From positions 16,244,001 through 16,308,000 of the forward strand of contig OZ116707.1 in NCBI GenBank assembly GCA_964199315.1: DNA of 64,000 nt. The letters are read 5' to 3'. Positions within the stretch are counted from its first letter, which is position 1, and each line of letters begins with the position of its first letter. This DNA comes from Orbicella franksi (Eukaryota). The notes beneath the pieces are model-generated. The model saw only the letters and a program-made list of their open reading frames with translations, ran no database searches and was not told the DNA's origin. A program made the translations under genes and the position numbers. Shown here piece by piece: positions 1 through 64,000 of this stretch.

Positions 1-180
1 TCGAAGCAGTTCATCATACGTCAAGAAACCAGTTTCGTTATTACGCCTTCCATAACTTCCTATAGAATGTGAACATTGTACACCTATTTCTTTACGCTCA
101 ACGGCCGCGCACCCAACTTGTATTCCTATTTTTCTTTTATGAGTCACAGAGTACATTTTCTTCCAATTTTCTCTTTACGC

Positions 181-460
181 TTCTGATAAACGTGCAACGC
201 ATTACAAAATGTCCTTATCCTGTTTTCCGAATGCAAATTGACAACAAATGACCATTAATATTTCCATTCGCTTTCTGTTTCTTACACCGACAATAACTTC
301 ACACGCTTTGTTATAAGACATCTGATAAACGTATAGCGCATTAAAAGATGTCCTTATCCTATTTTTCATATGCAAAATTTACAACAAATGATCAATAATA
401 TTCCTTCCGCTTTCTGTTTATTACACCTACAATATCTTCGCACGCTTTGTCATAAGAGAA
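181..460. repeat. Diverged tandem duplication, ~140-bp unit x2
   Basis: tctgataaacgt...aaatgtccttatcct...acgctttgt(t/c)ataaga at ~182-320, repeated at ~321-460 with scattered substitutions. Confidence 0.8.
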
Positions 461-1038: not shown

Positions 1039-3357
1039 ATGTCTTCTTCTCGTCTTGCGAAGTTGCGAAAACAACCAGACAGCACCTGGGCACTACTTCA
1101 AAAACGTTTAATCGCGCTCCCGGATCCGTTCGAAAAACTTTTTCTGCCTAATGTTTGGAACTTCATCGTCAACAAGTCTCATTCCTTGAGCACTAATCCA
1201 GGATACGTATCCACAAGTCTTATCACCACGACAACTTTCATTGCTGGATCAGCAAGTACACTTGTCACTGGCACACAAGAGATGCCTCTAAACATCTATT
1301 CAATCTTCGTTGGTCCACCGACGACAGGGAAATCACAAGCCATTAAAGAATGTGCTGTTTCTCCGATGGTTGCAGTGGTCAGGGAAACAGATTCCTCATC
1401 TCCAGTAATTCAAAAGTGCACATCCTCAGGACTTATAAAGACAATCGCTGACAACAAAAAGGGATTCCTCTTGTCCGGTGAGATTTACGATGTCTTATTT
1501 AAATTACTGAAGTCCGACGAAGAGAACGCCACTGGAGACGTGCAAGTTCTGTGTCAGCTATTTTCTGGAGAGGAAGCTTCATACAGGTACGCCACAGAAA
1601 GAACGCGCGAGATTGCATCAAACACGCCTTTTTCCATACTTGGTGCTACACAAGTTCCGTTTGCCGCCCGCCTTGTCACGCTATTAGACCAGGGACACGG
1701 TCTTATTGACCGATTTTTAATAACATTTCCAAAATGCCTCAGGCCATCCCCACAAGAAACGAACCAAGCAGTGGAAGCATTAAAGGAAAGTGCCCTTTCA
1801 AATTGTGAAGATATATTCATAGAAATCGCTAGATTGCATACATCGCGCTCAAGCTACACACTGACGCAAGAGGCAAATGACACTGTCAACGGTCTCAATG
1901 AAGAGTTCATTGCAGAAGTCAATGAAGCCATTACAGAAGGCAGGACCCCGCCAAAGACAAAAAAGATCGACGTAATTCTGTGCGTAGCTGCCGCACTCCA
2001 TATCTTCAACCATGTCGCTTCGCAACTTCTCGAGCATACACAACCCACACCGTCAGCAGACAAGATTGAAAGATCAACACTCCTCAGTGCCATTGATTAC
2101 GTTACTTGGGCCGAATCACAGAAAGAAATATTTGTTGAGGTAAGCATTGTACATAGTATTTCACTTCCCCTCATCCTATCTCTCTGAGATACAAAACATG
2201 TAAACAAAACACAGTTCTTCCTTTATAATACAACGTGATAACATCCAAAAACGCGCAGCCGAATAGCCATAGTCACGTAAGTAGCGAAGTGTCAATTTCT
2301 CGTTCTAAAAACGTGAAAAAAGAAAGTAATACACAAACTGTGTAGTCGCGTAGCAAGGCTTAAAGATTTGTTTATAGTTCGAGTGGCCGGGTATTCTGCA
2401 ATTTCTCCCCCACGTACATACCCTGCCATACACACGAATTACCACGAGACCGCTTACGCCGTACCCAGTCGGTAACTAATTTGAAATGCACGTAATTTTA
2501 AATAATGTCACAATGGCGTACCTATGCATTGTGCTTGCTACACCGTACGCAGTGTTGTCTTTTAACGACTACTTTACCAAGGGAAAATAATAACCCGTAA
2601 CATGGAGAGTACATTCTACGTTCTTTTAAGAGTCAGAGCCCAACAGAGCTAAACAGAATGTATGTTTTCCGTTTTAAAAATGATAGTTTACGTAAAATAA
2701 GCTAAAATAGCACATTTCACAAAGAATTTCCAACCGATTTTGTGCTTCGAAAAAAATTACCCTAAGATCACACAGCGAAGAACCTAAGAGCGCGCCTAGC
2801 AATAAAAAATGTGAATACAAATCATTCGTTCTTTAAAACAACGACCACGCTTTCCAATTCATACGAGTATAATAGCGCACATCTGTATTTTTTTGACCAC
2901 AAAAACAAACATGTCCCCCTTTTTTATGTGATATTTTTAGTTCCTGGGCGAGTTGATAACACCAACACTGGACGACGAAAAACCGCAGCCGACAGCATTA
3001 GCAGTGAAGACCGCCTGCATCCTATTCTCCGGACCTGTCTTCACCTTCAGGGCATTCAAGCAGAGCGCCACTCGAAAGTTGCGTGGGATTGCGGAAGCAG
3101 AATTTCGAGATGCCATAGTCAGTTTGGAAAACTCTGGAATGGGAAAAATCTTTTCCTTCAGGATCCCGCGAACCACAAACCCTGTCACAGTTTTTGTGAA
3201 GAATAACCCAGATTCAATAACATGGCCGAGTGATCTGTGCTCACAAACAGAGTTTCGGCAAAGATACCAGTTACCAACGCATCGCAGTGTCACTCCTGCC
3301 ATCAAGAGAGGGTTAGAATCAAGAGGCCATGTACCCTCAGGCTTTTTCAGTGATTAA
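1039..3357 (+). CDS. Two-exon P-loop NTPase, DUF3987/YfjI-like (helicase-type) with possible C-terminal winged helix; exons 1039-2139 and 2941-3357, ~505 aa
   Basis: Walker A IFVGPPTTGKS; Walker-B-like GFLLSGEIYD; ILGATQ and GLIDRF motifs as in DUF3987-type ATPases. Donor GAG|gtaagc at 2139/2140 and acceptor ttttag|TTC at 2940/2941 join in phase 0 (EIFVE-FLGELITPTLDD); no stop or frameshift in either exon. The exon structure is seen; the family name is motif-based inference. Confidence 0.7.
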
Positions 3358-3635
3358 CGACGATCATACGAACTATGTACAACACATTCCCATATCTTTT
3401 TGAACTAATTTTGTCGTAAATGATATTCTGGTTCCATCGGTTAAGAACATTTTCCAATCAATATAAACTATGTAAAATATTTTCACATATAGTTTTCGAA
3501 AAAGTTTTCATTAGTTAATGTGATTATTACATTTCAGATTGGCGTGCTACAGTCAAAATGGTTTTAAATATTAAACATTTTAAACATTTTACACTTCATG
3601 GATCAAAGTATCTTCGTCCATTAATACTTCGAATC

Positions 3636-3930
3636 TTGGATTATTTCTAAGGGAGGGCTGGTGTTCGCCACCACGTATCCACGTATCCGCGTATCCACTT
3701 CAATATACACTTGGATTATTTCTAGGGGAGGGGTGCTCTTCCCAACCACGTATCCACGTATCCGCGTATCCACTTCAATATACACTTGGATCATTTCTAG
3801 GGGAGGGGTGGTCTTCGCCACCACGTATACACGTATCCGCGTATCCACTTCCATATACACTTGGATTATATTTAGGAGAGGGGTGGTGTTCGCCACTACG
3901 TATCCATGTATCCGCAGTCTTCAAGGAAGC
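3636..3930. repeat. Minisatellite, 75-bp unit x ~3.7
   Basis: ttggat(t/c)at starts recur at 3636, 3711, 3786 and 3861; each unit has a G-rich tract and cgtatccacgtatccgcgtatccac. Confidence 0.95.
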
Positions 3931-4016
3931 AGCTTTGAAATGGCAGGGTATTCTGCAGTTACTCCCCTTTTTGTTTTGCTTTAAACTGGAAAGCTTCAGA
4001 GGAAAGGCTCAAAAAG

Positions 4017-25299: not shown

Positions 25300-26665
25300 G
25301 CTGTCAGTGACATCTTATTTAGTTTAAACTTACGTGTTGCAACAAGCAAGTTAAAGTTTGAGTTCCAAGTCTACTACTCATTACTAGGTCTGTGAGAATT
25401 CTCCTGACAAGAATCCCTTCTCTCGTATCACAAGAGTAAACTGGATCAGAAATGTTCTTAAACTGCATTCCATTCTCCTTCATAAGTTCAATTTGAGTCC
25501 TGACTAAATCCTCATCAATGTTTACATTATGTTTCTCACAATAATTGTGCAATACAAAACATGTATAAATAATTGTTGGGAGAGCCTAAAGCTCGAAGTC
25601 CATTTTTGTAGTGAGAATAAACCATCTTACCTTGAGTCCCCCAAAAGCACATTTAATTTGGTTTCTGGCGGAACGCAGCATGTTAAAATGACTTTTTCGT
25701 TGCTGGTACAAGCATCATACTCTTTCATGCAGAAAGAAAGCAGTGGATATGGTGGATCACCAATGAGATAATTTGGTATTTTAACACTTCCCTCAACTGG
25801 AGTTTGGAATGTACTTGGCAATTTACTGCTCCTTAGTTTGGCATGGATAGAGGAATTAGCAAAACCTTTTGCATCATGCACACTTCCTGGCCACCTGCTT
25901 TCAACATCTATAAAGGAACCTTTGTAGTCACACACAGCCTGTACACTTAATGAAAAGAATTGTTTGTAGCAAAAAAAATCTTGTGAGTTCTCTGATGGGC
26001 ATTCGATTGGAATACGCATCTCATCAATGGAACCAAAAGCTTGTGTCATTCCAAATTTTGCTTCAAACTCAGCTACTTTCTCCCTCATGCTTTCTTCATT
26101 CTTTGGAAGATGGAGATATTTTAGGCCAAGATAGTTTGAAATAGCCTGACAAACTTCACTTACAAGAGCTGATGCAGTGTTGGGTGCTATTCCAAAACTG
26201 GTTCCTGTCATTCTCAGAGAGCCTGTGTCTTTTAAAAAATACAATGCAATTACTACCTTTTCTTCCACACTCTGCCCTGTGGTTGGGTGATTTTGGATTA
26301 GCTGAAATGTACATGTAAAGCCTCAGCTCAGATACTAGGTTCAGAAAACAAGCCCTCGACATTGGAAAGTTTTCTTTCCAACACTCTTCTGGTGCTAGTC
26401 CGGTCCACACATTTTTCCACCACAAATCAGTTCAACCAGGTTTATGCCAACAACTTTGCTTACTTCAGTTTAAATGCATCTGCTTACTTCGCTTCAAATT
26501 TCAAAAAAGATAGGTTCGCTTTTGCAATAAAGAGGACTGGATTGCAAGATTGACCCTTGCCTGCTGTATTTTCCACAGCAGAAGAAAGCCATTCAGCTGT
26601 AGCAACATAGCAACGATAGCTGACAATGCTATACGTACGAACAATACAACTGTAGGTGGCGCCAT
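25300..26665 (-). pseudogene. Harbinger DDE transposase (DDE_Tnp_4-like)
   Basis: WKENFPMSRACF; EEKVVIALYFLKDTGS; QAFGSIDEMRIPI; FFCYKQFFSLSVQAVCD; WPGSVHDA; LIGDPPYPL; intron near 25550-25630. Confidence 0.85.
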
Positions 26666-32280: not shown

Positions 32281-32893
32281 CATGACATGCATTGAAGTAG
32301 AATGTGGTAGCCTAACATAGTGTGAAACGAGAGCAGCTCTTGGCTTCCATTTAGTTCAAAACAATCATGAGAGATAACTATCTTTCGCCGAGAAGTTTGG
32401 CGATTATTATTTTTTGATGCCCTGATTGATAAATACAACTCGAATGAAATTCAATAAAGCCTTCATGCTATAATTGTTATACACGATCCAAAACAAAACA
32501 CGTTTGCCGCTTCCACAAACAGCCTGACGACATGTAAAATCCTAACTACGATCGTCATTATATGAACTGTTTTATTTATTTGGCAAAGTCCGGTTGTTTC
32601 GAGAGCTTGTAATTTGTTACTGTAATGAACAAACGAAAGTTAAAAATACTTTACAAATGCCATAAACGGACGAAACAAACACGGAGAAAACTCAACCAAA
32701 ATGGCCATGCGATGGATAAAGATGTTCTACGAAGTAAACACTGATCACGTGTCAAGAACTTGTGCTCATGTGTCGTCACGCAACACTGGTCGTCGAAATG
32801 CTAATTTCTCGATTACTATGACGACGGCAAACTGTTGTGACGACGGACAAAACTTTGCTTTTCAGTTATTACTAAAACAGTTAAGTCAACGCT

Positions 32894-34636
32894 ATGGCTG
32901 AGACAGATCGACCTGAAATGGAAAACGAAAAAGCCTTTGAAAAAGTTAAGAAATTCCTAAAGGATGGTTGTGGTTGTGCTCTTGGTGCAAAAGGCAGTCC
33001 ATGTTCTGGACAGTTAACGGAAACTGTTGTACTTTTCAACCTAAATAATTGCTTGGAACTGTCAAATGACGAACTCGATTTGGTGGTCCTTGCAAGCATA
33101 CAGGCTTCCACTCACCGTGAGTCCACTGGTACCAAAAGAAGCAGGAGTCCTCGATGCACCTTTTATTTTCAGTCAATACCTATCTGCAAGGAGATGTTTC
33201 TTCACTTACACGGACTGAGTGATTCACGATTTCAATGGCTGAAGGAACACTATCAAACTTATGGTATTTGTCCCAGAATTCACGGTAACACTAAACGATT
33301 ACCCGAAAACACACTATCTCAGGCTACGGTAGAAGGAGTCTGCACATTCCTGACCAACTACGTTGAGGAAAACGCCATCTCCCTCCCGGGAAGAATACCT
33401 GGCTTCAAAAGTGATGACATCAAAGTCCTGTCATCATCCGAATCAAAGATCGACGTTTGGCGAGTCTATGAAGCAGCGTGCGTAGCTTCAGATGTACGAG
33501 CAGTGAGCTACAAGAAATTCTTACAGCTGTGGGACCAGTTTCATCCTAACGTGGTCATTTCAAAACCAGCAACTGATCTCTGTTTTACCTGTCAGCAAAA
33601 TACAAACAAACTTCAAAGAGCTGCAAACCTCTCCGACAGAGAAAAGACGGAATGTGTAAAAGCCCATCAGGATCATCTAAACTGTGCTCAGTCTGAAAGA
33701 GAATACTATAGGAACTCATGTATCAACTCCGAGAATGCTCTTGAACCGATTGACACTGAAACAGTACTTGACCGTGAAAGCCACGAAGCCTGTTCTTTAA
33801 ATGTCACGGTGCACTATTCATTTGATTATGCCCAGCAGGTCCACATCCCCAGCAATCCCATGCAACCTGGGCCAATCTACTTCAAGACTCCTCGGAAGTG
33901 TGGAATATTTGGAGTTATGTGCGAGGGCCTACCAAGACAAGTCAATTTCCTCATAGATGAGGCCGCTTCTGCTGGGAAAGGGGCAAACGCAACAATCAGT
34001 TACGTCCACTACTATTTTGGACACCATGGATTGGGAGAGACAGACGCGCAACTTAACGCTGACAACTGCACGGGTCAAAATAAAAACAATTGCTTTTTAT
34101 GGTACTTAGCATGGAGAACTCTAATGAAACTGCATCATTCCATCACATACTCTTTCCTTATTGCTGGTCACACCAAGTTTGCTCCGGACCGTTCTTTCGG
34201 ATTGATAAAGAAAGCCTTCAAAGTCACGTACGTTTCGTCGCTCTACGAATTTGTGTGACTGGTAGAGACCTCCAGCACTACTGGATTTAACAAAGCACAA
34301 CTTGTTGGCACGCACGACGGGCGAGTGGTTGTTCCTGTGTACGACTGGAGTACGTTTCTCGGGCAATACTTCAAAAAGTTGCCGAACATTAAGAAGTTTC
34401 ATCATTTTCGGTTTTCAAACGAAAACCCTGGCATGGTCTTCTACAAAGAATTTGTTTCTAGCCCAGAACATTCGTTTATGTTGTTGAAGAATAATGGTAT
34501 TCTTCTGCCACCTTCGATCCTTCCTGACGTAGTCAATCTAGAAGGACTGTCCAAGGAACGCAGGAACTATCTTTTCTGTGAAATCAGACAGTTTTGTAAA
34601 TCAGGAACGGAAGATATCGTAGCTCTGGCTCCATGA
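32894..34636 (+). pseudogene. Sola1-type DDD transposase, intronless, 580 codons, one in-frame TGA (34256-34258)
   Basis: HYSFDYAQQVHIPSNPMQPGPIYFKTPRK; LNADNCTGQNKN; FLIAGHTKFAPDRSFG; ORFs 32894-34258 and 34325-34636 share a frame (EFV*LVETSS). Confidence 0.85.
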
Positions 34637-37614: not shown

Positions 37615-40288
37615 TTCAAAGCGACTTAGCATTCTGACTGAATCGTAACCTGGAATTTAGATGGGGGGAAGGTGTAAGTTGTCGCAATCAATATGTAGGC
37701 AATAGTATTGATAAATTGTATCTTCTTGATTTCTAGAGGAAACCTGGAGCGGAAAAATCTTCGACAACAGGTCGGAGTCAGCCATCAACCCCTAAAGTCA
37801 GCCCTCAGTCAACCCCTGAAGTCAGCCTTCAGTCAGCCAAAAAATATCCATACCAGACGTTTTTGGTGGAAGAACAAAATAGGGACGGGAAGTGGTCTGC
37901 TAACCGCGAAGCTTCCAGAGTTAAGAAAACAAATGTTACTTCTGACGAGACCCGCGACGAGATCAGCGTCTTAAAGCAGCAACTTCAAGCAAAAGACCGA
38001 GAGTGCGCTCTGCTGAGGGACCGGCTCTGGGGTCAGGAAAGACTCTGTAAGGTAAATACATGCATTAGTAATGTTTCAGCAAGTAACGTTCTAACTCGGT
38101 TCAATTCTAGAAAATGCTGACTGCAAGGGCTGTTTGTTTGTATGTACATATGTAAAATATATTTTACCTTTTTTTGCAGATGATGGAAAGATTCGAAGAT
38201 TCACTCGCCGCAATGGAGGGAAACACGGCGCAGAGATTGTCAAGGATCGAGAAGCGACTAGAATCCTTAGAGACCGTGGTAAGTGTTCTTTTTTATTATG
38301 CATGTGTTTGCGTGGCTCTGTTCAGTCTTGTTTTAAAATACCGTAATTTCTCTTCTCGCTCAACAAACTATGAGAAAGAGAGACAATTATTATTGTTATC
38401 GCAGTGGCTATCCATGTCATACGGCGTCCATTCGTAGGAAAGGCGGAAGATTTCATTGAATTTCTCAGGTGCAATTAGTGATTCCTAGAAATCCAACATT
38501 ATATTTCCCTTGATAAGAACAAAGCAATTCTAGTAAGCGCTAGCTAGCGTTGTTTCTTTGGGGCAAATTTATCCTGAAATCCTGTTCGTAAATTTTCATC
38601 GTAAAGTGTTCCCTCGCTTCGTAATTTGGTAAATCTGAGAAACGAAGGTTGTGTGACAGTCGCCGTTCGGGTGCCATACAGAAAATTTCTTATTATTTTT
38701 ATAATTTTTTTCATTCTGCTCTTTTTTTTTCACAGTATCCAAGCCCACTAAACATAGACCCGTTATCAGTCAGTTTGTCTGCGAGTGTTTCGCCACTTGA
38801 TGACCTGTTGACAATTGACATAGACACTTTCGAAAGTTTGAGCGCCGAAGTCGACGCTAGCTTTTAGGTGGATTCGTCAGCTCCTACACTGGAAACTTCT
38901 GCTTCTCCTACACTGGAAACTCCTGCTGCTCCTACACCAGCAACTCTTGCCAGGACCGTCAGTTCCAACAGTGCCATAGACAGCACCATTGAAATCCCAG
39001 TTGCAGAAGATGTTATTCGGACATGTGTAACCCCAAGGAAAGTACATCAGGTTTGGGAAGCACTCCAAAAAGAAGTAAACAGGCACAGATGCACAGTTAC
39101 CCTTCTTCCCTTCTTTTTCACGAAGGAAGAAATCATGAATTGTAACACCAATGGTTCTCACGGCAAACAATGCCTGGACAGCAATAAGTTAAATTCATTA
39201 AAAGTTTTAGTTTTTAGCCAGTTTCCTGTAGAATCTGCGACCGAAAAGGATAAACAGTGGGCATTTATGAAAACCAAAATAAATGCCGGGTGTCGCGCTA
39301 TTAAGTACGCAAATACCACGCGGGCACAGTAACGAATAAGTGAAAGCACCTGTTGTAAGCATTTTAGTTTTCCTAGAAAACTGCCCGTAGTTTTTATTTT
39401 TCTCAGTTTAGGGGCAATGTTTGTAAGTCAATAAGAATGTATTTTAATAAAATTAGTAGATCATTTTTGAAACTGAAGGACTTCATTCATAGTTATAATT
39501 TTTAAATAAAGTGCTACGAACTAAAAAACTAAAGGAGAATAATTGAATGGCTTACTGCAAGACTGACGTAAGTGACTTTTTCGGGTGAAAAATGATTTTT
39601 TCGTTCAAAAGCGCCCAAATTTTTGCATGTGGTCTCCAACGTAATAGGAAAACATTGCCCTGTGTTTGTATTCCTTGTTTTTTTCACCTGATGTACAAAA
39701 CAAAGTGGAAAGTTTACTCGCTCAAAGACGGGATCTGGAAATGAATTTCTTCAACTACGTTGTGACGTAAGCTTGCGTTTGCATTATTTTGGCGCGCAAG
39801 ACAACGTCAAGCTTTCGATCAGACAAGTTGAAACCTCACCTGTTGCATGAAGTCCGCTTATTTGACTCATATTTGCACCCGCCTGGCGGTGAAAGGACTT
39901 CATTAAGTCCGGAAACCCGTAAGTCACTAGCATATCTCAAAGAAGCGAGATGTGTTGCTGTTCCAAGATCACTAAGCGGTCGAAGGCACACTGAAGCCAG
40001 GCGAGGAGTTTGAAAGCACTTCTCATGCCAAAAAATGAGTCGATGGCGAGAAGTGGCCCATTTGCCAAATGTTGCTGTGCAGAACGTTTGGAAATAAAGA
40101 AGTGCTTTTAGACTCTAAAAAAATCTGTTTAGTCGGCCCGTAGGCCTTGCCGTGTTGAAGTTGCTCAGGGATATCCCATAATAAGCTTTAATGCATCTCG
40201 ATAGGTCTTGTCAGTCGATCTCAGTCGGCAATGGAAAACGTGACAAACTTACATTTCGCTCAGCCAACGGAATATTAATTGAAACAGA

Positions 40289-41459: not shown

Positions 41460-42491
41460 ATGACTACAGAGGAGCTATCAACAAAAGTGGATGAATTGAC
41501 CCCGATGTACAAGGAGGCAATGGAAGAACTAAAAGCCCTGAAGGAATCCACCAATCCGACTCAAGTGTCATCCTCAGTACCAGCAACAACAAATGGTGCA
41601 AAGCAAATTGTTGTCTTTCCCCGCGACAAGATAAAGAACTTCACTGGGAAGAAAACAGAAGGTGACCAACCAGTTGAAGACTTTATAGAAGAACTGAAGA
41701 CAACATTTGAGGCACGAGAAATGACCCCACCCGAGAAAGTGGACTTCATAATGTCTCACCTGGATGGACCAGCAAAAGAAGAGGTACGAATGTACAGCGA
41801 AAAGGAGCGAAGTAACCCAAGCTTCCTTCTGGATGTTCTCGCACGAGCATTTGGAGAGAAACGTTCCAGCTCTCAACTCCTGAAGATGTTCTACGAGCGT
41901 AAGCAGAAAGAAAATGAAACACTTCGAGGGTACTCGTACAGCTTGAATTAACTACTCAAGCGCGTCACCAAAGCAGATCCAAAGGCAGTCCCTGACCCAG
42001 AGAAGACTCTACGGGACCAATTTGCAGACAATGTAAGGGACCCCTTTCTTAGAAAGGAACTGAAGAAGTTCATCCGAGAGCATCAGCCCGCATTCTTAGA
42101 TTTAAGGGAGGAAGCCTTACGCTGGTCAGAAGAGGAGGAAAGACCACAGCGTGCAAGGCCCCCATTATCACAGGAAGTAGCAGCTGACATCCCAGATGAG
42201 AGTTCTCAGTGTAGTGCTGCTAGCTCCGTCGTCACCCCCATGGATAAGGTATTGGAGGTCCTGCTCAAGCAGCAGAAGTCCTTAGAAGAACTGACGAGTT
42301 CAATTAGAGACCTCAAGCAGCCAAGGACCCAAATCCCGCCCAAGGAATGGAGTAGACAGCGCCCTAATATTGTTTGCTTCAAATGCAACAAGAATGGACA
42401 CATTGCCAGGAACTGCAGGGTAAATGATGACCGCCTTGTCAGGAAGGGACCACCACAAGGTAGACAGCGCCCTGACAAGCCGTCAAACTAA
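41460..42491 (+). pseudogene. gag: Gypsy gag (PNMA/Arc-like capsid, CCHC knuckle) with one in-frame TAA at 41949-41951
   Basis: KIKNFTGKK...VEDFIEE; MSHLDGPAKEEVR; the frame continues after the stop (LLKRVTK...LRDQFADNVRD) to CFKCNKNGHIARNC and PSN*. Confidence 0.9.
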
Positions 42492-42514
42492 CTCCCTCTG
42501 CCACAAGGAGCCAA

Positions 42515-45500
42515 GTGACAGTAGGGGACAACAGTGGCTCAAATATGGATGTGTCAAGAATGTATGAGAAGGCAGTTGGAGAGTGCCCAGTGGCGACAGT
42601 ACGACTGGGTGAAGTGGACGTACCTTGCCTCTTGGACTCAGGATCTGAAGTATCCACAATTACAGAAGAGTTTTTCAATGAACACTTTCGCCCTCAAGGG
42701 AAAACACTTTTACCTACCGGCGATTGGTTAAGACTTACAGCAGCAAATGGACTAGAGATACCATATGTCGGATACCTAGAACTGGATATTGAAGCCCTGG
42801 GAGTCATGATCCCACAAAGGGGAATTTTAGTCGTTAAGAGTCCAGCGAGTGAAGAGGCCAGGCAACGTAAGAGGATAACCCCTGGATTAATTGGAATGAA
42901 CATTATTACCCAACTGCAAGAACCTTACAAAAATGGAAAAACGGACATTTTACCTGAATGGAGTGAAGTGTTGAAGATTGTTTCAAGTGCCAAATCTATT
43001 TCAGCACGTGGTTTTGCAAAAGTAGCCGGTAAGACCAAGGTTAGAATTCCGGCTGGATCTGTTTCTGTTGTCAAAATAACTGGATGGCATGGACCTCAAA
43101 CAAGTAACACTGCTGCTCTTGTGGAACCATTAAGTGGACAGACTCCGGGAAACCTGATTGTCATAAATACAGTTACCGGTGTAGTTAATGGACAGCTTCA
43201 TGTAAGAGTTGCGAACATTACTGATGAAGATGTCTGGCTTCAACCCCATACAAGAATAGGAGTACTTCACGAGATTAATAATGTTATGGATACTAAAAAC
43301 ACTGTTGACTTCAAGAGAGTTTCAGTCAATGAAGAGATGGTGTTTGTCAGAGAATCCACAACAGAAGAAGACCAAACACAACCTTTGGCATATCCAATTG
43401 ATCTATCAGCCGTAGAATGTACACCTGAGCAAAGAGAGAAGCTTGAGACTCTCTTCCAGAAACATGCCAGCGTCTTTACAGAGAATGAGAATGACCTTGG
43501 ATACACAGAAACAGTCAAGCACAAGATCCCAACTATCGATCAAGTACCAGTTGCACAGCCTTACAGAAGAATCCCACCAAACCAGTTTCAAGAGGCAAAG
43601 GATCACATACGAAAACTCCTGGATGGTGGCATCATTCGAGAAAGCCATAGCCCTTACGCCGCACCTATTGTGCTTGTCAGAAAAAAGGATGGATCCCTGA
43701 GACTATGCGTTGATTACAGACGTCTTAACTCCAAGACAGTAAGAGACCAGTTCCCTTTACCAAGAATTGAGGAATCTATTGATGCCATTGGAGGTGCAAG
43801 ATGGTTTTCAACGATGGACCTCGCAAGTGGGTTCAACCAGGTTGCCATGGACGATGAAGACAGGCACAAGACTGCCTTCACAACGCCGTTCGGAATCTTC
43901 GAGTACAACAGAATGCCGATGGGTTTGACCAACAGTCCCGCGACCTTTCAGAGGCTTATGCAAACCTGTTTGAACGATTACATCTTTCAGATACTGCTTG
44001 TGTACCTGGATGACATCATCGTGTATTCCAATACCTTTGATGAGCACATAGAGAGACTTGACAGAGTCTTTACACGACTCCGAGAACATGGATTAAAACT
44101 CAAACCAGAGAAGTGTCACTTCCTTAGACGTAAAGTCACATATGTTGGTCATCAGATCTCTTCTGATGGTATCACAACGGATCCTGAGAAGACTCAAGCT
44201 GTATCAGAATGGAAACTGCCAACAACTGTTAAAGAACTGAGATCATTCCTTGGATTCTGCAGTTACTATCGCAGATTCGTCAAAGACTTTGCAAGGATTG
44301 CTGGACCATTACACCAACTAGTTAACAACTGCCTGCATGAGCTGAAAGTGGAGAAGAAACTTAAAGTCCCATTTGTGAAAAGGTGGAATCCAGAATGTCA
44401 GACTGCATTTGATGCATTGAAGAAAAAATTGACTCATCCCCCAATACTTGGATTTGCAGACTACAGCAAGCCATTCATCGTAGAAACAGATGCCAGTCAT
44501 GTGGGACTTGGAGCAGTCTTATCACAAGATCAGGATGGCCAGCGCAAAGTCATTGCTTATGCCAGTAGAAGATTGAGGCCAAGTGAAAGGAACCCAAGAA
44601 ATTACAGCTCCATGAAGCTTGAACTGTTGGCATTGAAGTGGGCAGTAACTGAGAAATTCAGAACCTATCTCCTTGGTTCAAAATTCGAAGTTTACACCGA
44701 CAACAACCCCTTAAAGTACTTACAGACCACTGCCAAGCTTGGTGCCTTGGAACAGCGATGGGCAGCTCAGTTGGCTTTATTCGACTTCTCAATCAGCTAC
44801 AGAAGTGGACAATCTAATGCAAATGCTGATGCCTTATCACGCCAGCCTCATGAATCATTGACACCAGAGGTAGACGATTCAAAGGAAGATGAATTATTAC
44901 ACATTGAGTCTATAGTTACTCTAGCAACTCCTGTACCTCCTGACCTGAGCCATGCTATTGTGAAGACGCCTATCCCAATTGAAGTAAGACGAATGGCAGC
45001 ATATGAACCAGACCATGATTTAACAGCAACTGATCAGACAACTAATGATGCTAATAAGAAAGCAACAACAGATGAGCCAGTAATTGCCACTACATCATTC
45101 CCCACTCACACAAAGGAAGAACTTATCAACATGCAGAAGGCTGATCCCACAATTAAAGAATTCCTAAAGTTCTGGGAGAGGGATAAGAAACCCACCTTTG
45201 CAGAGAGAAAGCAGCTTTCCCACGAGTGTGTCACCCTGTTGCGACAGTGGGATAAAGTTGCCAGAGAACAAGGCCTAATGTACAGAATTGTTCAGGATCC
45301 CAAACTTGGAGAACTGAAACAGCTTCTGTTACCAGCCACTCTGAAGAACAAAGTTATCACTAGCCTGCATGATGATATGGGACATCAAGGATTAGAAAGA
45401 AGTCTTCAGCTGACACGTGAACGATGTTATTGGCCCAGAATGTACTCAGATGTGGAGAGTTGGATCAAGAACTGTGAAAGGTGTACCTTATCAAAGATGC

Positions 45501-46831
45501 CAAACCCGAGAATCAGACCACCTATGGGAAATCTATTGGCGACGAAGCCACTTGAAATACTAGCAATAGATTTTACAGTCCTTGAACCAGGGACTGACGG
45601 AAGAGAGAATGTTCTTGTTATGACTGATGTCTTCACAAAGTTTACTTGTGCAGTCCCAACAAGAGACCAGAAAGCTATTACAACAGCTAAAGTTCTAGTG
45701 AAAGAATGGTTCTTCAAATATGGAATTCCCCTAAGAATTCACTCAGACCAAGGAAGAAACTTCGAAAGTGAAGTTATTGCAGAACTTTGCAGACTTTATG
45801 GGATCAAGAAATCTCGCACTACACCCTATCACCCCCAAGGTAATGCACAATGTGAGAGGTTCAACAGAATGCATGATCTGCTAAGAACCCTCCCTCCGTC
45901 TAAGAAGCGCAAGTGGCCTGAATACCTACCAGAGTTATTGTACGTTTACAATGCCACACCACATTCATCAACGATGTACAGCCCCCATTATCTAATGTTT
46001 GGAAGAGAAGCTCGACTTCCAATTGATTTACTTCTTGGAGAGGGTGAAGATGTTGAAGAAAGTTCAATTGATTGGTTAGCAGCTCATCAAACAAGGTTAA
46101 GAGATGCTTACCAAAGAGCAGGGGAGCATCTCCAGCTCCAAGCCAAGAGACGACGAGAACACCACAATGGAAAAGAGTTTGACATCCCGATCCAGAAAGA
46201 TCAGATAGTGTACTTACAAAACCATGTACATGGACGCAACAAGATACAGGACGCCTGGGATTCTACCCCGTATAAAGTTGTTCATGTTCCAACAGACCTC
46301 TACGGTTCAGTCTACACGGTGGAACCTATCAATGATCCTGGCCAGACCAGAAATGTGCACAGAAGCAATCTAAGATTGAGTGTGACCAATCCAGATGTGG
46401 AACAGGACCCAGGACCCAAACCTGTTAGAAAATCTAAATCCTTAGATCCTAGTAGTGAAGCAGATGAGGAGGATAATTCAGATGAGGAGCTTGTGTTAAT
46501 TCTACCCAAAGAATGCACAAAGGTAGCCCCAGAACCCTCTAATGGACCAGGACCTACAGGCCAGACAAGTGCAGACCCAGCCTGTTCAGAGGAGAGAGTA
46601 CCTACCGTTGAAAATGATACAGAATCTGTACCTTCAGCAGAAGCCCCTGTTCCAGAAACTACATCTCCTATACCACCTAGACGAACAAAGAGGAAAACCG
46701 CTGGAAAACACAAGAACAGGTTTAAGCAACCAAAAACTGCAGTAACAAGTTCCATAACTATTACAGTCAATGAACTCTCGATTTATTTAGTTATATCGAC
46801 TTTATTAATTTTGTATGGACTCTATGTCTAG
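42515..46831 (+). CDS. pol: Gypsy pol polyprotein, 1438 aa uninterrupted (protease, dUTPase-like spacer, RT, RNase H, integrase, hydrophobic C-terminal tail), in the -1 frame relative to gag
   Basis: LLDSGSEVS; RLCVDYRRLN; YNRMPMGL; VYLDDII; ETDASHVG; HDDMGHQG...CERC; LAIDF...HSDQGRNFES...YHPQGNAQCERFN. Confidence 0.97.
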   Translation: MTVGDNSGSNMDVSRMYEKAVGECPVATVRLGEVDVPCLLDSGSEVSTITEEFFNEHFRPQGKTLLPTGDWLRLTAANGLEIPYVGYLELDIEALGVMIPQRGILVVKSPASEEARQRKRITPGLIGMNIITQLQEPYKNGKTDILPEWSEVLKIVSSAKSISARGFAKVAGKTKVRIPAGSVSVVKITGWHGPQTSNTAALVEPLSGQTPGNLIVINTVTGVVNGQLHVRVANITDEDVWLQPHTRIGVLHEINNVMDTKNTVDFKRVSVNEEMVFVRESTTEEDQTQPLAYPIDLSAVECTPEQREKLETLFQKHASVFTENENDLGYTETVKHKIPTIDQVPVAQPYRRIPPNQFQEAKDHIRKLLDGGIIRESHSPYAAPIVLVRKKDGSLRLCVDYRRLNSKTVRDQFPLPRIEESIDAIGGARWFSTMDLASGFNQVAMDDEDRHKTAFTTPFGIFEYNRMPMGLTNSPATFQRLMQTCLNDYIFQILLVYLDDIIVYSNTFDEHIERLDRVFTRLREHGLKLKPEKCHFLRRKVTYVGHQISSDGITTDPEKTQAVSEWKLPTTVKELRSFLGFCSYYRRFVKDFARIAGPLHQLVNNCLHELKVEKKLKVPFVKRWNPECQTAFDALKKKLTHPPILGFADYSKPFIVETDASHVGLGAVLSQDQDGQRKVIAYASRRLRPSERNPRNYSSMKLELLALKWAVTEKFRTYLLGSKFEVYTDNNPLKYLQTTAKLGALEQRWAAQLALFDFSISYRSGQSNANADALSRQPHESLTPEVDDSKEDELLHIESIVTLATPVPPDLSHAIVKTPIPIEVRRMAAYEPDHDLTATDQTTNDANKKATTDEPVIATTSFPTHTKEELINMQKADPTIKEFLKFWERDKKPTFAERKQLSHECVTLLRQWDKVAREQGLMYRIVQDPKLGELKQLLLPATLKNKVITSLHDDMGHQGLERSLQLTRERCYWPRMYSDVESWIKNCERCTLSKMPNPRIRPPMGNLLATKPLEILAIDFTVLEPGTDGRENVLVMTDVFTKFTCAVPTRDQKAITTAKVLVKEWFFKYGIPLRIHSDQGRNFESEVIAELCRLYGIKKSRTTPYHPQGNAQCERFNRMHDLLRTLPPSKKRKWPEYLPELLYVYNATPHSSTMYSPHYLMFGREARLPIDLLLGEGEDVEESSIDWLAAHQTRLRDAYQRAGEHLQLQAKRRREHHNGKEFDIPIQKDQIVYLQNHVHGRNKIQDAWDSTPYKVVHVPTDLYGSVYTVEPINDPGQTRNVHRSNLRLSVTNPDVEQDPGPKPVRKSKSLDPSSEADEEDNSDEELVLILPKECTKVAPEPSNGPGPTGQTSADPACSEERVPTVENDTESVPSAEAPVPETTSPIPPRRTKRKTAGKHKNRFKQPKTAVTSSITITVNELSIYLVISTLLILYGLYV

Positions 46832-59104: not shown

Positions 59105-62100
59105 ATGGAATCGACCGAAGCGACTGATGGCGGTCGCCATCTTGGCCATTTGGATTCAGCTCGTACTGTGAGTACTAACATTGTTACTTTAAAAAACAAA
59201 CGGGCAGCCGTCAAAAGAAGGATCACGAACACGTTGAAGAAATTAGAGTCCACCATTGAACAGTATGGTCGAAAAGCGATTATACGTGGATATGTCAACA
59301 ACTTGCAGGAATATCTTAACGAAGCGAAAGGCCTCAATGATGAACTCGTCTCAGTGATCCCAGAGAACGAGCACGAAGCCGCAATAGATTGGTATGAAGA
59401 ACAACTCAATAGAGTCGAAGACGCTAAACTTCAGGCCAACGCACATCTTGACGAGAGGGCAGAGGAAAGTTCTAGCGGATTAAGCTCGGTGAAATCATGG
59501 AAAACTTCTTCGACAAGAAATGTCTCCCAAGCGGCCGAAATTCGCGCCAAAATTACTTCAGCAGAAATTAAAGCAAAACAACTTGCCTTGGAGGAACAGC
59601 GAAGAAGAGAGGAGATCGAAAAACAACTGGAGGTTAAAAGGAAACTTGAACTTGTCCAAGATGAAGCTCAAAGGCTAAAATTCATGGCTGAAGAAAGAAG
59701 AAAGACTCAGGAAGCCAAGGACGAGGCTGCACACCTTGCAGCAGAAGCAGCAGTGTTACAAAAGGTACAAAATGAAGTTAATGATCCGGAAGCTTTGTCT
59801 AATCGATTGCTTGATTTTGAGGATGATTCATTGAAATTTGTTCCATCATCTAATCATGATGAACCGTTAACAATAATTCCTCCACTACTCCCTGGTTCGT
59901 TGCAAGGAACTGGAGCAAATCATGGAACTGCATTGCCACCTGACAACCCTACAAAAGTTGTTACACCTTCACCTTTGTTACAACAGCCAAAGTCAGCTGT
60001 TTCATTTATTGCACCTCAGGGCACGAAAAAACCTAATGAAACATTGCCTTTGTATCACTCGTGGATTGGAGATTTACAAAGTGGAGTACAGCATCCAGCT
60101 TTAACTAGTACGGACAACCGAAAAACAACCATTTGTGGTCATTCTACTCGTGACTCTCTTCCAAAGTTACGCCTAAGTAAGTTTGATGGTGACCCTTTAC
60201 ACTGGTCTGATTGGTCCTCAATGTTTAAATCAATTGTTCATGATGCTAATCTGTCCCTTAATGGCAAAATGCAACATCTTCAGAACTCTGTTATTGGTAA
60301 AGCTAAGTCTGCAATTGAAGGATATGGATACAGTGGAGATTCCTACTATGAAGCACTGAAAGAACTGGAATCCAGATTTGGCAAACCTTCCCTTGTTGTG
60401 AAAGTCACACTTGACAAACTGAAAAAAACAGCTCGATTACAAAATGACAAACCTCAAGAAGTGAGAAATCTGTCAGATGTTGTGTCAACTACTGTGTGGA
60501 CATTTAAGAAGTTTGGATATGAAAGTGATCTGAAAGCAGAAGCTAATGTTTCCCTTGCCGTTGACAAACTGTCCCAGGAGCTCAAAATCAAATGGAAGGA
60601 CAACACCAAAGCTACCAAACTGGAACGTCCTAGTCTTGATGACTTCAGTGTGTGGTTAAAAGGTCAGGCAGATATTTATGATGATTGTTGTTACCCAAAA
60701 ATGTCAAGTAAGTTTCCATTCCAATCTCATAAGAAACCTCGGTCTGGTGGATCAAATGGAATGACTGAAAAACAGAACACTTTCTCAAGTAACATTTCAC
60801 CTCGCCCCAGGCCAACAAAGTCCTCTTGCATTATGGGTGATGGGCAGGAACACAAGTTATCTTCTTGTCCCAAGTTTAAGGCTCTAAGTGTGGAAGAACG
60901 CCTAAATGAAGTACAGAAACATAAGTTGTGCTTTTGTTGCCTCAGTCCTCGACATTGGCTTAGCAATTGTTCAAATCAAAAACAGTGTGGTGTAAATGGG
61001 TGTACGCGATCACACAATGCTCTGTTGCACAACTTGAGAAATGTTTCGGTGGAAAGCAGTGATGCAGTGTCTGCTATTAACCCAGTAGCACAAGCCGAAG
61101 TTGGTTCGTCTACTGAACATTCTAACACATCTCACAGAAGCAGTCACACCTCTGTTCTGTTACAAGTAGTACCAGTAACCCTCTATGGTCCAAAGGGATA
61201 TTTCAACACATATGCTATGCTGGACACCGGAAGCACTTGCAGCTTGCTGTTAGTAGATGTTGCTGGAAGACTTGGTTTGGATGGTCCTTTGGAAAGTGTG
61301 GTCTTAAATGGAATTCAGAAAACATCTGAGCTTATGACAAAGCGTGTTAATGTACAAGTCAGCCGATTGAATGACTTTGGTACCCAATTTGATGTGAATG
61401 GAGTTCTTGTAGTTGATCACCTGAATGTGCCAGAGAAGAAAGTGAAACTTGATGAGCTACAAGAAAGATGGCCACACCTATCAGACTTGGAGCTGACTGA
61501 AGTCGCTGGGACTCAAGTCACTTTGCTCCTTGGTAGTGATGTCCCGGAACTTATTGTTCCCCTGGAAACTCGACATGGTCCAAAGGGTTCCCCTGTTGGT
61601 GTTCGCACTAGGATTGGATGGACTGTTACTGGTCGCTTACCTGGCCATATTCAAGAATGTGAATCTGTTTGTAAAGTTCATGTGGCGACTCCGGATGAGG
61701 AACTCAATGACACCGTAAAAACTTGGTGGCGAACAGAGAACTTTGGTTGTCGTTATGACAATGATACCCAGCGCTCAGTTGAAGATGAAAGAGTCATGAA
61801 ATTCTTGAATGAAAGTACACGTAAGGTGGATGGTCGTTATGAGGTTCCTTTGATTTGGCGTGATGACAAAGTCAAACTTACTGACAATTTTGCTGCAGCT
61901 GCTCAACGTCTGAATTTTCTGGAGAAGAAGCTTAATCGTAATCCCGAGTTGGCAGAAAGATACAGGAAAACTATTGACATGGATATGGAAAAGGGATACA
62001 TCAAAAAGCTTACTAAGGAGAAAGCAACTGCACCAGCCATGCGCAAATGGTACCTTCCTCACCACCCTGTTCTGAACCCCAAGAAACCTGAGAAGGTTCG

Positions 62101-64000
62101 TCGAGTATGTGATGCCACTGCAAAGTTTCAAGGCTCATCATTAAACAGCCAACTTCTTAGTGGCCCAGATTTGCTGAACAACCTTGTTGGAATTTTCATG
62201 AGGTTTCGAGAAGAAAAGGTTGCGCTTTCAGGAGACATTGAAGCGATGTTTAACCAAGTTGCTGTCCCAGAAGAAGATCAAGCTTCCCTTCGATTTCTGT
62301 GGCGTCAATCTCCTGAATCATTGACAGAAGTCTACCAGTATGTGCGTCACATATTTGGAGCCAAATGTGCGCCAACCTGTGCTAACTATGCTCTATTGAG
62401 AAGTGCAGAAGATAATGAGAAGCAGTTTCCGAATGCTGCCTTTGCCATAAAGCGAAACTTTTACATGGATGACCTTTTCAAGTCTGTTAAATCAAGTGAT
62501 CAAGCTCTGGAACTGCAACAAGAACTTGTTGAAATGCTAAACAAAGCAGCTTTTCACTTGACCAAGTGGATCTCTAATGAGACAGAAGTGATAGAGCGAA
62601 TACCAGAATCGGAAAGAGCGCCCTCTATCAAGGTTGTGGAGGAAAGCATCGTAATGCCTATGGAACGTGCTCTTGGTGTCGTTTGGGATACCAGCTCAGA
62701 TTGTTTTGTCTATGAAGTGGTGAAGAGAGACATTGCGGACACGCGTCGGAAGATTCTGAGCTTGATAGCATCCCTCTTTGATCCGATTGGATTTCTAGCT
62801 CCATTTCTGGTCAGAGCAAAAATCTTCCTCCAGCATGTGTGGCAGTTAGGTATTGGATGGGATGATGCACTGCCACCAGAGTTTCTAAAGGAGTGGTCCA
62901 AATGGCAGGAAGAGCTGGATGGAATTGCACAGTTTCACATTCCCCGTTTCTATCGTCACATACCAGACAACCCGTCTGTTATTGACCTTCACATCTTTGG
63001 AGATGCCAGTGAACAAGCATTTTGCGCAGTGGCTTATTTCAGATTCTGCTATGTCAGTGGGGCAGTGCGATGTGCATTTGTTACAGCGAAGACTCGGGTA
63101 GCCCCGAAGAAACCCTTGAGCATCCCAAGGCTTGAACTGCAGGCTGCTGTTTTGGGTGCAAGATTGGCTGCTGTAGTGATTAAGGAACATGATTACATCA
63201 TTGATTCCACCTATTATTGGACAGACAGCAGTACTGTGTTTCAGTGGATTCGTGGAGTGTCTAAGCGCCACCCCGCCTTTATTGCTAATAGAATTGGAGA
63301 GATCCTGGACAGCACCGAACCCAACCAATGGAACCACTGTCCTGGACAGATAAATCCTGCAGATGATGGCAGCAGGGGACTTCCAGTGAGCTCTATTACT
63401 TCTGGGAGTCGTTGGGTAAATGGCCCTGCCTTCTTACACTTACCTGAAGAGAGATGGCCAAAGGAAAATGCAAAGCTTGAAATTCCCAAGCCGTCCAATG
63501 ATGACCCACAAGCCCAAGAAATGGCCATTACTTGGACTGGTGTGGTGAAAGGTTCAAAGAACGATTTCTTATCTCCAGCGAAATACTCATCTCTAACAAA
63601 GCTTCTCAGAGTAACTGCTTACCTGAAACAGTTTATATATAACTGTAAGCACCCCAAATCTGAACGTCACATTGGTTCTTTGTTGGTTGAAGAGATGGAG
63701 CAAGCTCGAAAGTTTTGGATCTGCATTGCCCAAGCAGAATCCTTTCCTCAAGAAGTTGCAGTTCTCAAGTCGAAACAGCATGTTTCAAGCAAGAGCAAAC
63801 TGGTATCTCTCTCACCATTCCTTGATGGGCATGGAATCATTCGTGCAGGTGGTCGAATTGAGAGAGCCGATATTCCATTTTACAGTCGTCACTCTGTGGT
63901 ACTAGCACCAGATCATGAGTTGACCCGTCTCATCATCATGAACTGTCACGAGAAATTGAAACATGGAGTGGACCAAGTACGAAATGAGTTGAGACAACAG
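59105..64000 (+). CDS. BEL/Pao gag-pol polyprotein, 3'-incomplete (>1630 codons); absent from the ORF track, consistent with no stop in the window
   Basis: MESTEATDGG...; LPKLRLSKFDGDPLHWSDW (DUF1759-like); CFCCLSPRHWLSNC and CGVNGCTRSHNALLH knuckles; MLDTGSTCS protease; FYMDDL RT; HIFGDASEQAF RNase H; last codons CHEKLKHGVDQVRNELRQQ are in the same frame as the ATG. Confidence 0.88.
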   Translation, partial: MESTEATDGGRHLGHLDSARTVSTNIVTLKNKRAAVKRRITNTLKKLESTIEQYGRKAIIRGYVNNLQEYLNEAKGLNDELVSVIPENEHEAAIDWYEEQLNRVEDAKLQANAHLDERAEESSSGLSSVKSWKTSSTRNVSQAAEIRAKITSAEIKAKQLALEEQRRREEIEKQLEVKRKLELVQDEAQRLKFMAEERRKTQEAKDEAAHLAAEAAVLQKVQNEVNDPEALSNRLLDFEDDSLKFVPSSNHDEPLTIIPPLLPGSLQGTGANHGTALPPDNPTKVVTPSPLLQQPKSAVSFIAPQGTKKPNETLPLYHSWIGDLQSGVQHPALTSTDNRKTTICGHSTRDSLPKLRLSKFDGDPLHWSDWSSMFKSIVHDANLSLNGKMQHLQNSVIGKAKSAIEGYGYSGDSYYEALKELESRFGKPSLVVKVTLDKLKKTARLQNDKPQEVRNLSDVVSTTVWTFKKFGYESDLKAEANVSLAVDKLSQELKIKWKDNTKATKLERPSLDDFSVWLKGQADIYDDCCYPKMSSKFPFQSHKKPRSGGSNGMTEKQNTFSSNISPRPRPTKSSCIMGDGQEHKLSSCPKFKALSVEERLNEVQKHKLCFCCLSPRHWLSNCSNQKQCGVNGCTRSHNALLHNLRNVSVESSDAVSAINPVAQAEVGSSTEHSNTSHRSSHTSVLLQVVPVTLYGPKGYFNTYAMLDTGSTCSLLLVDVAGRLGLDGPLESVVLNGIQKTSELMTKRVNVQVSRLNDFGTQFDVNGVLVVDHLNVPEKKVKLDELQERWPHLSDLELTEVAGTQVTLLLGSDVPELIVPLETRHGPKGSPVGVRTRIGWTVTGRLPGHIQECESVCKVHVATPDEELNDTVKTWWRTENFGCRYDNDTQRSVEDERVMKFLNESTRKVDGRYEVPLIWRDDKVKLTDNFAAAAQRLNFLEKKLNRNPELAERYRKTIDMDMEKGYIKKLTKEKATAPAMRKWYLPHHPVLNPKKPEKVRRVCDATAKFQGSSLNSQLLSGPDLLNNLVGIFMRFREEKVALSGDIEAMFNQVAVPEEDQASLRFLWRQSPESLTEVYQYVRHIFGAKCAPTCANYALLRSAEDNEKQFPNAAFAIKRNFYMDDLFKSVKSSDQALELQQELVEMLNKAAFHLTKWISNETEVIERIPESERAPSIKVVEESIVMPMERALGVVWDTSSDCFVYEVVKRDIADTRRKILSLIASLFDPIGFLAPFLVRAKIFLQHVWQLGIGWDDALPPEFLKEWSKWQEELDGIAQFHIPRFYRHIPDNPSVIDLHIFGDASEQAFCAVAYFRFCYVSGAVRCAFVTAKTRVAPKKPLSIPRLELQAAVLGARLAAVVIKEHDYIIDSTYYWTDSSTVFQWIRGVSKRHPAFIANRIGEILDSTEPNQWNHCPGQINPADDGSRGLPVSSITSGSRWVNGPAFLHLPEERWPKENAKLEIPKPSNDDPQAQEMAITWTGVVKGSKNDFLSPAKYSSLTKLLRVTAYLKQFIYNCKHPKSERHIGSLLVEEMEQARKFWICIAQAESFPQEVAVLKSKQHVSSKSKLVSLSPFLDGHGIIRAGGRIERADIPFYSRHSVVLAPDHELTRLIIMNCHEKLKHGVDQVRNELRQQ

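Follow-up and report, generated by a model that had tools for sequence, protein, structure and literature searches.

A two-gene Merlin transposon of Orbicella franksi carries a DUF3987-family ATPase gene

What does an intron-containing gene for a DUF3987-type ATPase do among the transposons of Orbicella franksi, when SF6 helicases are otherwise described as serving replication in cells, in phages and in the mobile elements of bacteria? We addressed this question for a gene near the start of a 64,000-nucleotide stretch of contig OZ116707.1 (assembly GCA_964199315.1, positions 16,244,001 to 16,308,000), termed the window. The original prediction held that two exons join in phase to encode an uninterrupted ATPase of about 505 amino acids, and this gene model was confirmed: the spliced frame comprises 505 residues (367 + 138 codons, phase 0), the intron has GT-AG borders, and a GT/AG pair lies at the identical codon in all 10 relatives examined, which were taken from 15 loci containing both exons. 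The assignment to DUF3987 proved equally sound, exon 1 matching the Pfam family (PF13148) with an E-value of 1.4e-18 and 67.7 bits against a cut-off of 27. Intron length across the relatives ranged from 168 to 801 nt, the position being conserved but not the sequence, as the introns of three pairs tested have at most 31 bases in common, located at the 3′ end. Predicted database gene models of 502–506 aa join at the same point as 2139/2941, and models from Acropora, which is also the source of the closest named proteins, as well as from Exaiptasia, Paramuricea, Hydractinia, Patiria and Holothuria run into the same C-terminal domain. Two raw-read RNA runs yielded no reads from this region, and two contig runs contained no 2139–2941 joint; in the latter, intron depth equalled exon depth, with an even cover over the intron, the spacer and the element ends, as expected from DNA carry-over. 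The intron is thus called from the comparison among relatives rather than from reads.

Aligning 20–40 kb around each copy revealed a Merlin (IS1595-type) cut-and-paste transposon of 5,206 bp with two genes, of which DUF3987 is the second; the element starts 1,240 bp ahead of the window and ends at position 3965 (Table 1). The gene is present in eight near-identical copies on six chromosome-scale contigs, the element copies being about 98–99.7% identical. Five of these retain both ends in normal orientation, three of which, the window copy included, are flanked by different 8-bp duplications, with such a duplication absent at the other two; of the eight copies, two further ones lack the left end and have a common flank, and one is rearranged. 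The 29-bp inverted repeats show GG at both ends and fit the Merlin size range. For the transposase, a sibling copy matched PF12762 (DDE_Tnp_IS1595; E 8e-20, 71.8 bits, cut-off 27); residues D190 and D251 align, as does the Glu block at the C-terminus. The transposase frame is open in five of the eight copies and frameshifted in the window copy. Transposase and DUF3987 gene lie head to head on opposite strands. A six-frame listing of the whole element yielded the transposase and the two DUF3987 exons as the only long coding frames, and no primase or polymerase frame. A 14-bp motif of the 75-bp array recurs in inverted form four times near the left end, and the layout with a subterminal array is the same in the relatives L093 and L097; the array likely comprises transposase-binding sites.

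Table 1 Features of the Merlin element in and next to the window, and further DUF3987 carriers in the genome
Feature	Position	Strand	Description
Left inverted repeat	G000:C10:16242760, 1,240 bp before window	.	element end
Merlin transposase gene, 5′ part	1..156	-	ATG at 156; about 340 aa; extends to ~860 bp before window
139-bp two-copy repeat	182..457	.	spacer between divergent genes; also in sibling copies
Exon 1	1039..2139	+	ATG at 1039; 367 codons; ends GAG/GTAAGC at 2139/2140
Intron	2140..2940	+	801 nt, GT-AG, phase 0; pyrimidine tract then AG at 3′ end
Exon 2	2941..3357	+	138 codons + stop; likely winged-helix domain
75-bp array, 3.7 copies	3635..3915	.	subterminal, 50 bp inside right end
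Right terminal inverted repeat	3937..3965	.	26/29 bases match left repeat; GG...CC ends
8-bp target-site duplication	3966..3973	.	identical to 8 bases preceding left end
KDZ element, about 8.1 kb	G000:C8:17228760-17236888, C10:17963694-17971896, C10:5987830 onward (L065-L070)		CxC5 + KDZ transposase
Mutator-like element, 8.7 kb	G000:C8:29217411-29226098, C9:29.176-29.184 Mb, C15:7.595-7.615 Mb (L071-L074, L081, L082, L142)		

The original prediction of a eukaryotic mobile element gene is thereby substantiated by a 5,206-bp transposon with shared ends in eight copies, and the alignment of copy flanks that it had proposed indeed brought out these ends, 8-bp target-site duplications and a co-occurring transposase. 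Its 75-bp array does mark an element end, being subterminal to the right repeat. The element can, in turn, no longer be termed unclassified, as it is a Merlin DDE transposon, with most of its transposase gene situated immediately ahead of the window. Elsewhere in the window we observed fragments of DDE_Tnp_4 (25627–26322), DUF7869 (32885–34636) and BEN (38868–39332) type, along with two uninterrupted retrotransposon frames, one Gypsy-type of 1451 aa (42476–46831) and one BEL/Pao-type of at least 1650 aa (59051–64000), so that describing nearly every neighbouring gene as broken was an overstatement.

In copy D (G000:C15:9.19 Mb; L030–L031), a single 8-bp target within the transposase gene adjoins both element ends and is duplicated in inverted form, which is a mark of self-insertion; copies D and F, 42 kb apart, have private changes in common. 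Two miniature derivatives, 187 and 76 bp long and consisting of both ends, are located at G000:C2:11921048–11921234 and 11927186–11927261, and pattern searches across the genome returned 16 left-end and 28 right-end matches.

Structure prediction, one of the checks suggested initially, resulted in a model of exon 1 with a pLDDT of 93.6, for which the top Foldseek and VIA-align matches were MCM proteins. The best of these, to MCM2-7 and MCM8/9 (Z 15.5, rmsd 4.2, 275 aligned), were followed by those to BrxL and SCCmec Cch; TnsC and DnaA scored Z 6. The product is accordingly a predicted MCM-like (SF6) AAA+ ATPase. Exon 2, modelled with a pLDDT of 82, likely forms a winged-helix domain, nearly all of its top rows being winged-helix proteins at a middling score (Z 6.5–7.0, rmsd about 3.5, 77–92 aligned). 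The Walker A motif reads GPPTTGKS, and among 56 aligned homologues its Lys98 (56/56), the catalytic Glu148 (55/56), the sensor Gln205 (56/56), the arginine finger R225 (55/56) and a second arginine, Arg315 (51/56), are conserved. The Walker B motif, LLSGE, is devoid of its aspartate, which is missing from the Merlin-linked clade as a whole: the glutamate is kept in 55/56, no aspartate is found among the five commonest residues preceding it (54/56 rows), and a serine two places ahead is conserved in 54/56. The Asp-Glu pair persists in the KDZ- and Mutator-linked relatives. Owing to the clade-wide loss in the Merlin-linked proteins, ATP hydrolysis may be weak there. The window copy alone carries a cysteine at position 315, where the five of five sibling copies compared have arginine, and its product is likely impaired; the gene is therefore intact, as claimed at the outset, with respect to its open frame and not to this conserved arginine. 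Judged from its frameshifted transposase and the substituted arginine, the window copy is probably crippled and non-autonomous, having been moved by an active sibling or having decayed afterwards.

The pairing of both genes is an old one and was also observed in other families. A second Merlin family in the genome has the same gene layout, with transposases 55–63% and ATPases 42–49% identical, and its C6 copy exhibits related ends and an 8-bp duplication. Among 33 metagenome loci, many of them near-duplicates and together representing roughly 6–7 independent families, a head-to-head transposase lies upstream in 20, including 19 out of 19 with at least 1.2 kb of upstream sequence; the 13 loci devoid of a transposase all have less than 1 kb upstream. 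The calculated dN/dS was 0.05 for exon 1 (two pairs, with dS saturated in four more), 0.19–0.25 for exon 2 (four pairs, saturated in four) and 0.08–0.16 for the transposase, ratios that place both exons and the transposase under purifying selection. The element moved recently, and its second gene is kept under selection. Identities between families were found to be mosaic in L087, L093 and P0290, amounting in L093 to 92% for the transposase, 71% for exon 1 and 83% for exon 2, and in L087 to 69, 79 and 45%, respectively. These mosaic identities point to recombination in the spacer and the intron.

A control is provided by a one-gene Merlin family of 2.1 kb, at least as numerous as the two-gene element and with a transposase 38–39% identical, in which DUF3987 was absent from all seven copies examined (10-kb stretch). 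As these one-gene Merlins move without DUF3987, Merlin transposition does not depend on the gene, which is optional in the superfamily. Transposases paired with DUF3987 (window 1–156 on the minus strand, L087, L093 and L099) possess an amino-terminal extension of 40 aa that the one-gene family lacks. This extension carries two short Gln-centred motifs, which may resemble sites for the dynein light chain LC8.

By Pfam search, further DUF3987 genes were detected in the genome, three loci lying in KDZ and three in Mutator-like elements. Where their two ends are preserved, these elements have inverted repeats of their own together with 8-bp duplications. The DUF3987 gene of the KDZ element is intronless, encodes 523 aa with a canonical Walker B motif and is arranged head to head with the transposase; a long tandem array lies close to one terminus of this element, and two of its copies show 8-bp duplications. 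The Mutator-like element encodes a DUF6729-type protein of 760 aa, a CXC/TCR frame and an intron-split DUF3987 gene with a winged-helix-like last exon, its duplications being 8 bp at two copies and matching in 7/8 bases at a third. The same three genes are found in a third, diverged Mutator-like element. Pfam gave no name for the transposase-like 760-aa protein, and the label Mutator-like is based on its Atlas look-alikes (DUF6729 0.93–0.96; Mutator 0.82, a lead only), the ends and the duplications, together with a presumed D...H motif. No match to the three transposase queries was found near the DUF3987 loci at C2:27.0, C3:13.05, C5:15.18, C10:6.83 and C10:6.85 Mb, nor near the pair at C3:9.76/C5:12.73 Mb; one of these seven loci has a transposon-like, unclassified neighbour. 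Unrelated transposases have kept DUF3987 repeatedly, which is consistent with a function in mobility.

A profile search returned 192 clusters at an E-value of 1e-30 or better. The closest plasmid and phage proteins are 22–26% identical, the best plasmid match to the window protein reaching 22%. Phage genomes gave no match to the window protein and a single one, of 25%, to the KDZ-linked protein, and PHROG helicase and primase matches were found for the family. Viral contigs contained no relative of either query protein. Fused longer forms (883–2520 aa) were absent among 7,994 candidates, which weighs lightly. Scanning prokaryotic genomes yielded two loci, and both were rejected as bacterial copies: L149, from a bacterial genome bin, is 99% identical to the entire element, intron included, and represents host DNA in the bin, and the second is a chance match in the wrong frame. 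A tree of 42 rows (one half-length row omitted; LG+G4 without mixture; 11 outgroup rows chosen mostly by likeness to the KDZ type) resolved separate Merlin-linked and KDZ-linked clades, each with 100/100 support, and placed one Mutator-linked and one unplaced row as sister to the Merlin-linked clade. One and several captures from prokaryotes fitted this tree without distinction (p-AU 0.425).

Based on the observed element ends, duplications, copies, gene layout, fold and purifying selection, we infer a mode of action in which the DUF3987 product serves as an optional ATP-driven DNA motor or remodeller aiding the element's own transposase, a reading to which we assign about an even chance. The spliced ATPase would oligomerise into a ring, and its likely winged helix would engage DNA at the transposase-bound ends or at the target. 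ATP could then be used to unwind or clear the product, by removing the transposase, or by opening either the gaps of 8 nt or the break in the donor, whereupon host repair would complete the insertion or refill the donor site. The outcome would be a higher yield of finished insertions. A bacterial DUF3987 protein is described as an oligomeric 5′-3′ helicase that binds primase (PMC11724360); the bacterial family works with primase in replication and not in transposition (PMC4889955, PMC11724360), which counts against a helper of transposition. A broader version, in which the SF6 ring helicase is a swappable motor module common to animal Merlin, KDZ and Mutator-like transposons and lets them replicate or process excised DNA, appears unlikely.

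Several other explanations were weighed against a helper of transposition. The protein could be a true replicative helicase that copies an excised or circular element with the host primase and polymerase, so that copies are gained. The family comprises replicative SF6 helicases in phages and integrative elements (PMC4889955, PMC11724360), its PHROG matches agree with this, the architecture of AAA+ plus a likely winged helix is kept, and the arrays near the ends could be loading sites; copy D, moreover, resembles more than one unit of a self-insertion circle, which is a hint only and also derivable from sister-chromatid transposition or recombination. Yet the absence of a primase or polymerase frame from the 5.2-kb element leaves the replication gene or origin of the original prediction unsupported, the ends and duplications are those of a plain Merlin, and the copy number of eight is low, making this account rather improbable. 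The product might instead bind ATP and DNA but be a poor hydrolase, serving as a switch or scaffold that helps to capture targets or limits transposition, or as a decoy directed at host silencing or the host's MCM. The clade-wide loss of the Walker B aspartate with its serine conserved in 54/56 is in line with such a function, and the 40-aa extension of the paired transposases is a possible docking site. The models for a switch would be IstB, MuB and TnsC, transposon-encoded AAA+ partners of DDE transposases that have an initiator-type fold and are essential; the present ATPase resembles them as an AAA+ partner of a DDE transposase, and differs in being MCM-like and optional. Its MCM-like fold, scoring far above DnaA/TnsC-like ATPases (Z 15 vs 6), the Asp-Glu pair of the KDZ- and Mutator-linked relatives and the retention of all other catalytic residues speak against a switch or decoy, which we consider a minority possibility.

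It is also conceivable, and in our view quite improbable, that the gene is cargo without a part in transposition, kept for a benefit to the host cell or the element lineage. One-gene Merlins do move without it, several DUF3987 loci have no transposase nearby, and the discordant identities of exon 1, exon 2 and transposase between families indicate that the gene is swapped as a module. Cargo genes, however, usually decay, and this gene is maintained by purifying selection in multi-copy elements belonging to three superfamilies; no conserved single-copy locus was found in the genome. A single-copy, horizontally acquired host gene with a gained intron, as the original prediction had considered, or a bacterial contaminant would be suggested by the otherwise prokaryotic family and by the gene on a contig of a bacterial bin. 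This is refuted by the eight near-identical copies on six chromosome-scale contigs, lying between transposon ends, and is extremely improbable also because that contig has the entire element including the intron, with no phage match and a best plasmid match of 22%.

How does this element relate to known systems? Merlin/IS1595 elements are characterized by a DDE_Tnp_IS1595 transposase, inverted repeats of 24–462 bp starting with GG and 8- or 9-bp duplications (PMC8101967, citing Feschotte 2004); Merlins often contain internal tandem repeats, and IS1595 members usually, not strictly, consist of a single transposase gene (PMC8101967). The present element conforms in its transposase, GG-starting repeats, 8-bp duplications and internal tandem repeats, and departs from this description by a second gene, intron-containing and divergently oriented; the accessible text of PMC8101967 does not mention 'helicase', 'second ORF' or 'additional ORF'. 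Phage DUF3987 proteins are reported as SF6 replicative helicases with an MCM-like AAA+ module and a C-terminal winged helix, in a source that describes SF6 helicases from phages and haloviruses and not from eukaryotic viruses (PMC4889955). With such DUF3987/YfjI helicases, for example AgaPH, the element's protein has in common the fold, the likely winged helix, the Walker A motif, arginine finger and second arginine (PMC4889955, PMC11724360). At about 22–26% identity, it differs by having no primase partner or fusion, by its intron, by the lost Walker B aspartate and by its location inside a DDE transposon. AcademH and KolobokH likewise are eukaryotic DDE transposons with an accessory helicase (PMC9587614, PMC10045372, PMC10799480); theirs is a RecQ (SF2) helicase and the elements belong to other superfamilies, whereas the element described here encodes a ring-type SF6 ATPase. 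Merlin elements and helicase-bearing DDE transposons are known; our search of openly readable papers turned up no Merlin whose second gene is of SF6 type, and such families may stand unnamed in Repbase, subscription journals or supplements. Within the texts covered, no paper on DUF3987 concerned eukaryotic transposons.

Our analysis contributes a complete element with its ends, duplications and copies, a control family with a single gene, and three superfamilies of carriers within the same genome. This two-gene Merlin is small, has moved recently and has defined ends, and it allows a direct test of what accessory helicases do in eukaryotic cut-and-paste transposition, with the one-gene Merlin of that genome as the control. 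If the motor module were indeed common to these transposons and let them replicate or process excised DNA, they would gain copies in a way so far undescribed for DDE transposons of eukaryotes. The occurrence of DUF3987 in three transposase superfamilies of a single genome suggests a general helper module, and many 'uncharacterized' gene models of corals, anemones, hydrozoans and echinoderms are likely transposon genes.
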